20,000 bases of DNA from the NCBI GenBank assembly GCA_000442015.1, contig KE561038.1, positions 55,421 through 75,420 on the forward strand, in the 5' to 3' direction. Position numbers and translations under genes: made by a program. Source of the stretch: Rozella allomycis CSF55. Lineage: Eukaryota. This document shows, one piece after another, positions 1,788 through 17,390 of the stretch. The notes beneath the pieces were generated by a model. It was not told the origin of the DNA and ran no database searches. It worked only from the letters and a program-made list of their open reading frames with translations. Every line of letters begins with the position of its first letter. The stretch's first letter is position 1.

Positions 1788-1793
1788 GCGAAC

Positions 1794-1835
<42 letters not shown>

Positions 1836-1860
1836 TCGTGTTCGATCCACGATGTTCGCA
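1788..1860 (+). tRNA. tRNA-Phe (GAA), intronless
   Basis: Acceptor GCGAACA/TGTTCGC, D arm GCTC/GAGC, anticodon stem TCAGA/TCTGA with GAA at 1821-1823, T arm TCGTG-TTCGATC-CACGA, discriminator A. Confidence 0.98.
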
Positions 1861-1865
1861 CTCTT

Positions 1866-1947
1866 GGTTGGGTGGCCGAGCGGTCCAAGGCGTGAGTTTA
1901 AGGCACTCATCTCTTCGGAGGCAAGGGTTCGAATCCCTTCCCAATCA
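1866..1947 (+). tRNA. tRNA-Leu (AAG), long variable arm, intronless
   Basis: Acceptor GGTTGGG/CCCAATC, anticodon stem TGAGT/ACTCA with loop TT-AAG-GC (AAG at 1900-1902), variable arm CTC-TTCG-GAG, T arm AAGGG-TTCGAAT-CCCTT. Confidence 0.97.
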
Positions 1948-1951
1948 ATCA

Positions 1952-1959
1952 TTTTTTTT
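1952..1959 (+). terminator. RNA polymerase III oligo-T terminator (T8)
   Basis: T8 run 4 nt after tRNA-Leu; no T-run between the two tRNAs. Confidence 0.85.
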
Positions 1960-13200: not shown

Positions 13201-14759
13201 TAGCCCGTTCATATTCAATGGGGAAATCAATCAACAAAATTTTGGGATTTTCAATGGATTGTTTCATCGAACGATGCGAAACATGCTTTGAAAAGAGCAC
13301 TCCGTGATAAATACAACTTTCCACAGGCGATCCTTCTGGAATGGATTTTATCTTTACAGATTCCCTAATATCCATTTCTTCTCCTGGAATGATCTTTTCT
13401 GCAATTCGAATCGCTATTTTCATAATCACAGTTAGCCATTCATCTTTACCTTCAATCCCTTGCTGATTTAGTAAATATTTAATTAATCCTTCCAAATGAA
13501 GAATTGAAATTGCAGAGAGCTCAGATTTTTCTTTATTTCTTTTATGTTTGGAAGAGCCCGATGTAACCGGTATTGGATTCCCTTCACCGCTACTCTCCAG
13601 TGATAAATTTGAATTGTTATTTTTAGCATGAGATTTAGGCAACATTGGCGAGAGTTTTGAATTAGAGCGTGACAAATTTCTACTACCACTTCTTTTCAAT
13701 GAAATCTTTCTCAGTACTTTTTTCGGCGTTTTTTGCTGCCATCCTGTAGTCCAGGCTTCTTCCGCAGTTATTGTTTTCATTTGCTCTTTCATCTTGGTCC
13801 AATCAACATGAAATAGTCTTAAAGGGTCTTCAGGCTCGTTATCTTTTCTATTCTCCCAGTCATCATCTTGCAGAACATTTGAATCATCTTGCGATGTAAA
13901 CCATTCCCTAAAAGATCCAGTCTCTACGTGCCCCACTGATGATGAAACAGTGATTGCATTGGAATGCTCGATTCCCTGTTCCTTCATTTCTAAAACCATT
14001 GTTGTACAATATGTACACATTCTCACTCCGCTAGGATGTCCTTCAATTAAAACTGGTATAAGTTTGCAACAATGGCCACAGAAAATTTGCCCGCAAACTC
14101 TACAATGGTGCTTTCTCCTAAATGTGTTGAAAGGAAGTTTGCATTCATAACATTCCTTGCAAAAGGCATCATTCATCCAGAAATCTCTATTGATAGTTAC
14201 ATCTGACACTAGTAAGCGCAACCTGCTAAAGAAATCAATAAAAGATCCTTTTGTTGCAAATGATGCATGATCTTGATTAAAGGATATAGGCGATTGAATT
14301 CTCATATTAAGAGTTGAAGAAGATGATGACAGTTTCCTTCTGTGTCGTTTGTCTATTATCAAATCAGGTAGGCTAGAAGTCAGTTTCCTTGGAATACTTG
14401 AGAGGGAATCTGTGGGTTCGTTCTCTTCTTTCTCGTCTTTCTCAACTTCCTCAACGGGATACCTGTTACTGTTTTCTTCATTGTCAACGGTGTCCTTGCT
14501 AAAAGTTACAGCTTCTTTCACCAGTCTCCCAAGACTTTTCAAACCAGATGCGATCCTGGANTTTATCAACTTCCTCAGCGGGATCCCTGTTACTGTTTTC
14601 ATTGTCAACGGTGTCCTTGCTAAATGTTACGGCTTCTTTCACCAGTCTCCCAAGACTTTTCAAACCAGATGCGATCCTGGAAGCTTTTGAAAGAACTGAA
14701 GTGGAATCATTATTGTCAGCCGATAGATTGGAATCAGATGGGAAGCTTTCATAAGACAT
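10272..14759 (-). CDS. FAB1: Phosphatidylinositol-3-phosphate 5-kinase Fab1/PIKfyve; 7 exons
   Basis: FYVE domain (FWMND...CYEC...[17 protein letters not shown]), Cpn60/TCP1-like domain and PIP5K domain ([48 protein letters not shown]). Introns 11653-11678, 11413-11442, 11036-11062, 10903-10931, 10657-10688, 10475-10500. Frame broken only by the 'n' at 14561. Confidence 0.95.
14438..14681. repeat. Imperfect tandem duplication (123 and 120 nt) inside FAB1, joined by one 'n'
   Basis: Copies 14438-14560 and 14562-14681 differ by 5 substitutions and a 3-nt indel. Confidence 0.92.
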
Positions 14760-14885
14760 TAAATACACAATTTCCGAATATAACAAAATTTAAAATTTAT
14801 TGAATATTCTTTGCTTGATAATAAATAATTAACACACAACAAACTAACATAAGAGTTGATTCATTAAATTTATACAAAATGAAGA

Positions 14886-14952
14886 TGATCAGTTTTAAAA
14901 AGCTCGATTACAGTCGCTCAAGAATCACGCTGTAAGTAATTTGCATCATTCA
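14886..14952 (-). ncRNA. Box C/D snoRNA, snR47/SNORD36-like, predicted to guide 18S rRNA Am619 (yeast numbering)
   Basis: Box C ATGATGC (14949-14943), box D CTGA (14892-14889), short TGA/TCA terminal stem. The 12-nt guide CGAGCTTTTTAA is complementary to the conserved 18S sequence UUAAAAAGCUCG, and the D+5 rule lands on the first A of the A5 run. Confidence 0.85.
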
Positions 14953-15041
14953 AAAAAACATAAATATTACAGATACTTACCATTTGGTTCTCCAAAGAGG
15001 AAACAAGTTGTGAATACACAACCCGTGACTCTCCATGAAGG

Positions 15042-15273
15042 CCGGCTCACTGCAAGAGTAATCCCCATTGAGTTTCAAGATAAAATCAAGCAACACCATA
15101 ACTATGTTAGGAAGAAAATACTCAGAAATCCACCATGCTCCCAAAAGATCATAGCGATAGACAACGGAGTAGCCTGTATTACACAGGTTGTATTTCTACA
15201 AAGGTCTTCCGGGGACTTTCCCCAAAAATGTTATAAACATCTTCGAGAGGTGTTCTTTGCAAAGTGAACCGGT
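15042..15273 (-). ncRNA. NME1: RNase MRP RNA (about 232 nt)
   Basis: P1 CCGGTTCACT-TTGCAA / TTGCA-GTGAGCCGG; P2 AACACC/GGTGTT; P3 hairpin; CR-I GAAAGTCCCC (15220-15211) pairing in P4 with CR-V AACTCAATGGGGATTACTC (about 15074-15056); P8 TTGTA-GAAA-TACAA; P9 CCTGT-GTAAT-ACAGG; CR-IV ATAGTTA (15105-15099). GGGGAAAGTCCCCGGA also occurs in human RMRP (recalled). Confidence 0.93.
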
Positions 15274-15296
15274 GCTTTTTGCGCCAGGGGCAAAGC

Positions 15297-15325
15297 TTTT
15301 ATATTTTTAGGGGTGACCCTGGTCG
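15297..15325 (-). promoter_or_regulatory. Putative RNase MRP RNA promoter: TATAAAA box plus upstream CGACCAGGGT element
   Basis: TATAAAA at 15303-15297, about 24-30 nt upstream of the predicted 5' end; CGACCAGGGT at 15325-15316. Confidence 0.55.
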
Positions 15326-15619
15326 TAGAGGAAATAGAAATTTACTAAATTCAAAAAGGAATTACTGATGCATAAATTCGAAAATATAACGATCCCGATC
15401 TTTTAAAAAAACATTATATTTACATTAGTGTATTTTAAATACCTAAAGGGCTAATTCTGCGTTTGTACACAATACTTTCATCCTATCTATATTCTCGTGA
15501 CTGACAATGGTCGACGTCGTCAATCATATTCAATAAGGATTAAGGAATGATTAAAATACGCGTCGACGGGCTATTAGAATTGAGATGTCATGGGNGGGGG
15601 CGCAGCGACCAGGGTTTAA

Positions 15620-16489
15620 ATGGTAAAAAGTTGATAGTATTTTAAAGATAGCCTCAAAACGAATATATTGAAGAGGCTATAAAAAAGCATGGGCGTCGTT
15701 TTAATTATGAAGAGAAAAAGTATGATATTTTTCTTTGGATAATAAAGACGTAAAAAAGAAGCGCGTTTGGTACATGAAAGATCTCAGATGGCACAAAAAG
15801 TTCGTGGTCTAAAAGCTAAATTATTAAATAAGAAACGATATGCCGAAAAGATACAGATGAAAAAAGCGTAAGATTCAAAACTGGTGTTTATATAAAGGCT
15901 CAATCAACATCAACAAAAAGAAAAGAAAGAGCGCGGAGAAGCGCCAGTGCAAGAGGGTGCTATTCCAGCATATTTATTGGACAGAGAAAATGAGAATCGT
16001 GCTAAAGTTTTGAGCAATATGGTTAAACAAAAGAGAAAAGAAAAGGCTGGAAAGTGGAATGTACCTTTGCCAAAAGTTAAAGGAGTTGGTGAAGATGAAG
16101 TGTTCAAAGTTTTAAAAACGGGAAAGAATAAAACAAAGGCTTGGAAGAGAATGATCACTAAACCAACCTTTGTCGGTGATGGATTTACAAGAAGACCTCC
16201 AAAATACGAAAGATTTATAAGACCAATGGGATTACGTATGAAAAAAGCACACGTCACACATCCGGAGCTGAAAGCGACCTTTTGCTTACCTATTTTAGGT
16301 GTAAAGAAGAATCCAAATTCTGCTCTTTATACACAGCTTGGAGTTTTGACAAAAGGTACCATTATAGAGGTGAATGTCAGTGAACTTGGTTTGGTGACAA
16401 CAGGTGGAAAAGTTGTTTGGGGAAAATACGCTCAAATTACCAACAATCCTGATTTGGATGGTTGTGTCAATGCTGTTTTATTAGTTTAA
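15620..16489 (+). CDS. NSA2: 60S ribosome biogenesis factor Nsa2; 4 exons
   Basis: [17 protein letters not shown]...[32 protein letters not shown]...[10 protein letters not shown]. Introns 15623-15651 (exon 1 codes only ATG), 15720-15747, 15868-15897. Confidence 0.97.
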
Positions 16490-16511: not shown

Positions 16512-17390
16512 TTATGCAGCCTTTTGTTTTTTCTTTTTTGATGGTGTAGAAAATACGCTTGACATTCCCGATGATTTAGCTTTGACTTCTTTTGCAGGGG
16601 CGAAAGCTTTCTTTTGAATAAAAAAATTAACGAAAGTGACGAGAAACACTATCCAAACAAGAGCTGCCTTGATGTCATCGAATTCTACAGGAAAGGACTT
16701 CCAACTAAATCCTGCAATGTTTGAAAAATAGTCTCTTTTGTATTCTACCGCTACTAATGCAGTAATGGCTGATAAGAAGACACTTACTGAAAAGGATTTA
16801 ATTGAAGCTGGAAAAGAAAATTCAGGCTTTTCCTTGAGTAAACCAAAAGCGTCAGCAATTATTCCACCAAAGCTTCCAGCGATAATTCCGCAAATAATAG
16901 GAGTGAAGAAAGTGGTACTGTCAGTTTGATTTTTCAAAGCCAAAAATACACCGCCATTTAGAACTGCATTAACTTTCGAGACAGCATCGAGAAACGACAT
17001 TGGGATAACAAATGCGAATGAGAATAGATTTAAAATATTAAAGACAGGTGTTATGAATAGAACAAAGAGTGCGACCAGAGAATAACATATGACAACCTTA
17101 TCAGTCAAAAAGAAACCCGGAGTGCGATTAAACAATAGTGCTACTTTTCTCAAAAATAATGCATTACCTGTCAAATTCGTACCGCTAACTGCCAAAATCC
17201 AGACTGTCACGAGAGCTTGTGAGATCGACATTGGGACGTATTTTGGATACCGAAGGCGGATCAACCAGCAAATAGACAAAGCATGTCCTAGTGTAACGAT
17301 ATCTAGAGGATATGGAAGTATATCCAGTTTCGCGACTTCCAGAGGAAGATAAAAGAGAGCCGACAAGTCTTTAATGGTGACGTTTTGCAT
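16512..17390 (-). CDS. TRIC/TMEM38-like ER cation channel; 2 exons
   Basis: Multi-TM protein with twin glycine motifs SGTNLTALLFNRTP (after removing in-frame intron 17141-17167) and GIIAGSFGGIIADAF; C-terminal KQKAA fits a KxKxx ER-retrieval signal. Confidence 0.68.
   Translation of the reverse strand: MQNVTIKDLSALFYLPLEVAKLDILPYPLDIVTLGHALSICWLIRLRYPKYVPMSISQALVTVWILAVSGTNLTGNALFLRKVALLFNRTPGFFLTDKVVICYSLVALFVLFITPVFNILNLFSFAFVIPMSFLDAVSKVNAVLNGGVFLALKNQTDSTTFFTPIICGIIAGSFGGIIADAFGLLKEKPEFSFPASIKSFSVSVFLSAITALVAVEYKRDYFSNIAGFSWKSFPVEFDDIKAALVWIVFLVTFVNFFIQKKAFAPAKEVKAKSSGMSSVFSTPSKKKKQKAA

Follow-up and report, generated by a model that had tools for sequence, protein, structure and literature searches.

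Tandem genes for an RNase MRP RNA and a U36/snR47-type box C/D snoRNA in the Rozella allomycis genome

The gene for the RNA of RNase MRP adjoins a small nucleolar RNA (snoRNA) gene in budding yeast. According to the gene table of PMC9731477, Saccharomyces cerevisiae NME1 (YNCN0013W) and SNR66 (YNCN0014W) are neighbors on the same strand, and the table places SSN8, SNR66, and KSH1 around NME1. Here, we describe a similar pair in a 20,000-nucleotide (nt) stretch of Rozella allomycis CSF55 (contig KE561038.1, positions 55,421 to 75,420), which we call the window and number from its first nucleotide. Rozella allomycis is a parasite of the water mold Allomyces and the sister lineage of the microsporidia (PMC5499648). 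We consider it probable that the window holds two genuine, apparently unannotated noncoding RNA (ncRNA) genes on its minus strand, one for RNase MRP RNA and one for a box C/D snoRNA of the U36/SNORD36/snR47 family, and that the protein-coding genes on either side, NSA2 and FAB1, are ordinary neighbors. The identity, strand, and spacing of both predicted RNAs are firmly established at the level of sequence, and their juxtaposition is suggestive. The literature searched contained no published description of a Rozella MRP RNA or of Rozella snoRNAs, and the available text of a paper on microsporidian ncRNAs names Rozella in its introduction only (PMC5499648). The two predicted RNAs and their parts are as follows:

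15046..15269, minus strand: RNase MRP RNA gene, 224 nt (Rfam RF00030)
14955..15045, minus strand: spacer between the MRP RNA and the snoRNA, 91 nt
14884..14954, minus strand: box C/D snoRNA of the U36/SNORD36/snR47 family, 71 nt (Rfam RF00049, clan CL00051)
14943..14949, minus strand: C box AUGAUGC, read from the sequence, matching six of the seven positions of RUGAUGA
14893..14909, minus strand: D guide AAUCGAGCUUUUUAAAA, placed by alignment to the SNORD36 consensus
14889..14892, minus strand: D box CUGA, placed by the sequence and the RF00049 alignment

RNase MRP RNA is the RNA core of an endonuclease that cuts precursor ribosomal RNA (pre-rRNA) in internal transcribed spacer 1, and yeast snR66 guides the methylation of 25S rRNA. 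The Rozella snoRNA differs from snR66 in being a U36/snR47-type guide for 18S rRNA, and the genes flanking the pair differ as well, with SSN8 and KSH1 listed in yeast and NSA2 and FAB1 present in Rozella. As in yeast (PMC9731477), the Rozella MRP RNA gene is followed by a box C/D snoRNA gene on the same strand. The original prediction for this locus, made from the sequence alone, treated such an arrangement as not known from model organisms; for the RNA pair this was a mistake, given NME1-SNR66 in yeast (PMC9731477). The type of gene cluster is therefore not new, and what the locus provides is useful annotation in the form of two new members of known RNA families.

A scan of the 20-kb window at Rfam gathering thresholds returned three matches, namely the RNase MRP RNA and two tRNAs. 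The RF00030 match scored 89.2 bits against a gathering value of 50 (E 6.6e-24) and covers model positions 1-266 without truncation. The full minus-strand RNase MRP RNA that had been predicted from the letters is thus borne out by a covariance model, well above its threshold. Conserved regions (CR) I and V (GGGGAAAGUCCCCGGA and AAUGGGGAUUA) align on upper-case consensus positions and could supply the two sides of the P4 pseudoknot (GAAAGUCCCC ... GGGG). CR-IV reads AUAGUUA, in agreement with ANAGNNA, and CAUAGUUAUG is identical to the consensus. The P8 loop is GAAA in the alignment, one base below the five-base GAGAG consensus; a GARAR motif in the P8 loop of MRP RNA was reportedly defined by Lopez and colleagues in 2009.

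At 224 nt, the Rozella RNA is short for the 266-position RF00030 model. In the alignment, 21 consensus positions of the P3 arm are deleted, which leaves a plain hairpin with no apparent internal loop. The P3 arm, with its helix-internal loop-helix form, is the Pop6/Pop7 site. A comparison with microsporidia can be made by published description: the MRP and P RNAs of Encephalitozoon have highly reduced P3 and 3' domains, a state that has been tied to missing Rpp20 (PMC5499648). The Rozella MRP RNA is similarly short, with a strongly reduced P3 arm, but differs in still matching the eukaryotic model over positions 1-266. In a separate search of viral contigs, the 15-mer of the MRP CR-I occurred at 52 loci, none of which had CR-IV or CR-V downstream, and all were dismissed as chance matches.

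The snoRNA was predicted to lie about 90 nt beyond the MRP RNA, and it does lie there, on the same strand after a gap of 91 nt. Comparison with Rfam gave a mixed outcome: a SNORD36 match was found, but at 29.1 bits (E 0.027 in a permissive scan of the 1.1 kb at 14600-15700) it is below the RF00049 gathering value of 30. The C and D boxes are closed by a terminal stem of 3 bp (UGA/UCA). The guide AAUCGAGCUUUUUAA does not depart from the Rfam consensus at any aligned position (15 nt), and its register to the D box is unchanged. The window contains the composite pattern TGATG-N32-62-GAGCTTTTTAA-NN-CTGA a single time, and none of 200 dinucleotide shuffles contains it.

The fifth base 5' of the D box is predicted to pair with the first A of an A-run in 18S rRNA, the equivalent of Am619, within a stretch that we take to be GUUAAAAAGCUCG. 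The D guide would accordingly be expected to direct fibrillarin to 2'-O-methylate the 18S A that corresponds to A619 in yeast and A668 in humans, an assignment that, like the 12-nt complementarity to 18S rRNA put forward in the original prediction, rests on the identity of the guide with the family consensus. Vertebrate U36 is encoded within introns of the gene for ribosomal protein L7a, whereas yeast snR47 is a stand-alone gene; the genomic context of the Rozella snoRNA differs from both. Human U36 (RF00049), yeast snR47 (RF01203), and plant AtU36 are treated as one family that dates to the last eukaryotic common ancestor, with targets at Am668/Am619/Am621 in the small-subunit rRNA and Am3703/Am2218/Am2210 in the large-subunit (LSU) rRNA (PMC3511168). 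Entries for snR47 elsewhere give Am619 and Am2220 (PMC5199042). These two sources, as far as their available text goes, support the proposed assignment of the Rozella snoRNA to the guide family for 18S Am619 (yeast) and Am668 (human). Like U36/SNORD36, snR47, and AtU36, the Rozella snoRNA has C and D boxes and a D guide identical to the consensus. It differs from them in its score just under gathering and in that the LSU guide (for Am3703/Am2218-2220) and the D' box are unrecognizable. It is an ordinary, somewhat divergent member of the family with an 18S guide only.

Relatives of the snoRNA were sought by scanning metagenome contigs with the composite pattern, which matched at least 126 loci. 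Forty of the 49 loci with 1 kb or more of sequence preceding the match were scanned with Rfam, and 28 of these 40 reached SNORD36 gathering, with scores of 32-71 bits, while 12 fell below it. Because 28 of the 40 reach the threshold, the composite pattern marks true SNORD36 members. Several traits of the Rozella copy recur among the 120 distinct matches listed: a C after UGAUG is present in 25 and AA before the D box in 21, and ATC, the triplet that precedes GAGC in the window, is also the commonest one (26 of 120). The LSU D' guide GAAUUUCUU is kept by only five of the 120. RF00030 was found in none of the 40 loci scanned with Rfam, and the MRP CR-I motif was found at none of the 126 SNORD36-type loci among the matches listed. 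No locus in either set appears to come from a close relative of Rozella. The linkage of MRP RNA and SNORD36 is thus not general among eukaryotes, a test whose scope did not extend to Rozellomycota, and the conserved linkage envisaged in the original prediction has no support from the 40 other SNORD36 loci. On two metagenome contigs, SNORD36 lies in a same-strand cluster of C/D snoRNAs, with Z101, Z157, and U49 on one (L027, 1995-3271) and with SNORD24 and snR60/Z15 on the other (L069, 381-1812). The genomic context of the family therefore varies widely between eukaryotes.

Expression of the two RNAs can be considered in the light of four further elements in and around the spacer:

15316..15325, minus strand: 10-mer CGACCAGGGT, at -56 to -47 of the MRP RNA and forming an inverted repeat with the next element
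15606..15615, plus strand: other copy of CGACCAGGGT, separated from the NSA2 ATG by 4 nt
15296..15303, minus strand: TATAAAAG, candidate MRP core promoter, at -34 to -27 of the MRP 5' end
14952..14958, minus strand: run of seven T (T7), abutting the snoRNA 5' end and 88-94 nt past the mature MRP 3' end

The TATAAAAG site holds the only TATAAA within 15270-15620, and GACCAGGGT has exactly two exact copies in the 20 kb, both in the CGACCAGGGT pair. The spacer folds into a long imperfect hairpin (about 15043-14986) with an apical 10-bp stem (15026-15003) and a UAUU loop. Its RNAfold energy is -27.4 kcal/mol (z -3.65), and none of 200 shuffles was equally stable. Inspection of the sequence found no TATA about 30 nt upstream of the snoRNA; the only TATA-like string in the spacer is 6-15 nt from the snoRNA 5' end. 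On the sense strand, the MRP gene contains a run of five T (T5, 15228-15224) and three runs of four (T4), and another T5 is part of the snoRNA guide. The AT-rich divergent region between the MRP RNA and NSA2 also contains GC-rich palindromic CpG motifs, GTCGACGTCG (15507-15524) and ACGCGTCGACGG with ACGCGT (15559-15570), which may be transcription-factor sites.

We tentatively favor the production of both RNAs from one shared RNA polymerase II (Pol II) transcript. Such a transcript would start about 30 nt past the TATA box at 15303-15296 and would be cut within the spacer hairpin, after which exonucleases would trim the products, as they do for yeast snoRNAs made in polycistronic units. In yeast, polycistronic snoRNAs are separated by RNase III at such hairpins. 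We favor this possibility because the only TATAAA of the divergent region is at -34/-27 of the MRP RNA, because the snoRNA has no promoter of its own about 30 nt upstream, because the 91-nt spacer folds into a stable hairpin, and because T5 and T4 runs sit inside the two genes while a tRNA unit in the window ends in a run of eight T (T8). The closest processing parallels are the yeast snR190-U14 and snR78-72 units, which likewise consist of same-strand RNAs with a short spacer stem-loop and a promoterless downstream gene. They differ from the Rozella pair in that the upstream partner in Rozella is a ribozyme RNA and not a snoRNA, the loop of the Rozella spacer is UAUU and not AGNN, and the Rozella precursor is only a prediction. 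The yeast counterpart of the pair also argues for a shared Pol II transcript, since NME1 adjoins SNR66 and is occupied by Pol II, as SNR66 is (bioRxiv 10.1101/352906, in the portion of that preprint available).

The remaining features of the neighborhood are protein-coding genes, their introns, and one spurious frame:

15620..16489, plus strand: NSA2 gene, with exons at 15620-15622, 15652-15719, 15748-15867, and 15898-16489
15623-15651, 15720-15747, and 15868-15897, plus strand: NSA2 introns of 29, 28, and 30 nt
14868..14874, minus strand: TATAAAT, 10 nt past the snoRNA and 109-115 nt before the FAB1 ATG
14941..15267, plus strand: open reading frame (ORF) of 108 amino acids (aa) with a TTG start, antisense to the MRP RNA and overlapping the RF00030 match; not a gene

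The NSA2 call of the original prediction, about 350 bp away on the opposite strand, held up. The ATG (15620-15622) is 350 nt from the MRP 5' end in divergent orientation, and the four-exon model of NSA2 (TINP1) encodes 260 aa with no internal stop. Residues 1-260 are 75% identical over their full length to an NSA2-domain protein of Mycotypha africana, and the last exon matches Pfam S8e (PF01201; E 1.9e-36). An N is present at 15595, near the NSA2 start. The 108-aa ORF that had been pointed out exists as a string but is an antisense artifact over the MRP RNA. Downstream of the snoRNA on the minus strand is FAB1/PIKfyve (ATG at 14759), with FYVE, Cpn60_TCP1, and PIP5K domains, and the TATAAAT at 14868..14874 is likely its promoter. 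Extension of the FAB1 frame through a GTAAGT site at 14980-14975 was ruled out by in-frame stops. The 5' part of FAB1 contains an 84-nt direct repeat (14477-14681; 98% identical, spacing 121 nt, with another N at 14561), which may be a true tandem duplication of coding sequence or may have arisen in assembly.

A 292-aa ORF at 16512-17390 (minus strand) had a single match in a collection of 5.8 billion sequences, a hypothetical protein of Rozella allomycis CSF55. The alignment has 229 of 230 aligned residues identical plus a 9-residue gap, which is accounted for by a 27-nt intron; this match identifies the window as Rozella allomycis. All four introns seen in the window are 27-30 nt long, and one follows directly after the NSA2 start codon; introns of this genome appear to be very short. 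Elsewhere in the window, tRNA-Phe(GAA) and tRNA-Leu(AAG) are arranged head to tail at 1788-1959 (plus strand) with 3-5 nt between them and a single T8 run (1952-1959) 4 nt past tRNA-Leu. This arrangement suggests a dimeric tRNA gene that RNA polymerase III (Pol III) transcribes as a single unit. The tiny introns had also suggested Blastocystis as the source; a Blastocystis motif, TGTTTGTT, occurred twice in the window against 1.99 expected, and this reading was dropped once the protein match pointed to Rozella.

Several features of the locus speak against two functional RNA genes served by one Pol II transcript. The snoRNA is 0.9 bit short of RF00049 gathering, with an E of 0.5 over the whole window, and neither the GAAUUUCUU LSU guide nor a CUGA D' box was found in it by inspection or alignment. 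The spacer hairpin has a UAUU loop, not the AGNN of yeast Rnt1 sites. The T7 run between the MRP RNA and the snoRNA would be expected to stop Pol III, and the placement of a TATA box at -30 and a conserved-looking element at -56/-47 would equally suit a type-3 Pol III promoter. The marginal score, the missing D' box, the noncanonical seventh base of the C box, and a terminal stem of only 3 bp could mean that this stretch matches the family by chance or is a dead copy. We regard this as highly improbable, given that the composite pattern is absent from all 200 shuffles and that the guide agrees with the consensus over 15 nt; moreover, 12 of the 40 pattern-selected metagenome loci are likewise under gathering, and C at C-box position 7 is common to 25 of the 120 homologs listed. 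The T7 run and the promoter geometry, which resembles that of metazoan and plant U6 and MRP promoters, would instead fit independent units, in which Pol III makes the MRP RNA from a type-3-like promoter formed by the -56/-47 element and the TATA at -34/-27 and stops at T7, the trailer is trimmed, and the snoRNA is expressed separately. Pol III units in the window do end in long T runs, such as the T8 after tRNA-Leu. However, the T5 and three T4 runs are on the sense strand within the MRP gene itself, the 91-nt spacer has no promoter-like element for the snoRNA, and a 3' trailer of some 90 nt would be uncommon for an MRP RNA, so that we find independent units rather unlikely. An intronic origin of the snoRNA, from the GTAAGT at 14980-14975 to an AG at 14845/14844 or 14815/14814, with a host ncRNA or the FAB1 5' untranslated region around it, has a slim chance of being correct. 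The GTAAGT is perfect and comes right after an ATG, the same layout as in the first NSA2 intron, AG acceptors are available downstream of the snoRNA, and intronic snoRNAs are described as common in fungi (PMC8476143, as far as its available text goes). Yet such an intron would need 137-167 nt, compared with the 27-30 nt of all four introns in the window. No acceptor opens a frame into FAB1, and both acceptors that are in frame lead into stops. FAB1 also has a TATAAAT of its own shortly past the snoRNA, and a single GTAAGT in 91 nt may be due to chance.

A wider view of the locus, taken in the original prediction, is that NSA2, the MRP RNA, and the snoRNA form a possibly co-regulated cluster. 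In this view, the three genes would share a bidirectional control region and be kept together by selection. The products of all three genes act on pre-rRNA, NSA2 and the MRP RNA are divergent at a distance of 350 nt, and an exact inverted copy of the 10-mer CGACCAGGGT faces each of them. Against this, the distances of the two copies differ greatly, from -56/-47 of the MRP 5' end to 4 nt before the NSA2 ATG, and a common role for them is therefore unproven. The 350-nt divergent region (15270-15620) has no PAC or RRPE core motif, and RNase MRP accompanies SNORD36 at none of the 40 loci scanned elsewhere. From gene numbers, we estimate that so dense a genome would place one ribosome-biogenesis gene beside another by chance in a few per cent of cases. 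NSA2 is also not among the genes listed around yeast NME1 in the gene table consulted (PMC9731477). We therefore consider co-regulation of the three ribosome-biogenesis factors improbable; the claim was not supported, nor has the wider idea of a three-gene ribosome-biogenesis module gained support to date. The adjacency of NSA2 is most likely due to genome compaction, and neither NSA2, divergent at 350 nt, nor the downstream FAB1 belongs to a dedicated module; both are ordinary neighbors.

With these loci, the annotation of Rozella allomycis, the free-branching sister of the microsporidia, gains two essential ncRNA genes. The 224-nt MRP RNA with its minimal P3 suggests that RNA reduction of the microsporidian type began before the microsporidian lineage split. 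Beside yeast NME1-SNR66, the tandem layout offers a concrete case in which to ask whether MRP RNA can be made as part of a polycistron of the snoRNA type. We speculate, as a doubtful proposal, that one Pol II transcript may yield both the MRP RNA and the U36/snR47 guide through an RNase III-type cut at a dedicated spacer hairpin, with CGACCAGGGT coupling the unit to NSA2. If true, this would, together with NME1-SNR66, suggest that fungi have repeatedly, or since ancient times, made MRP RNA as the opening cistron of units of the snoRNA type. Production of the rRNA-cleaving enzyme and of a guide that modifies rRNA would then be linked through a single transcript.

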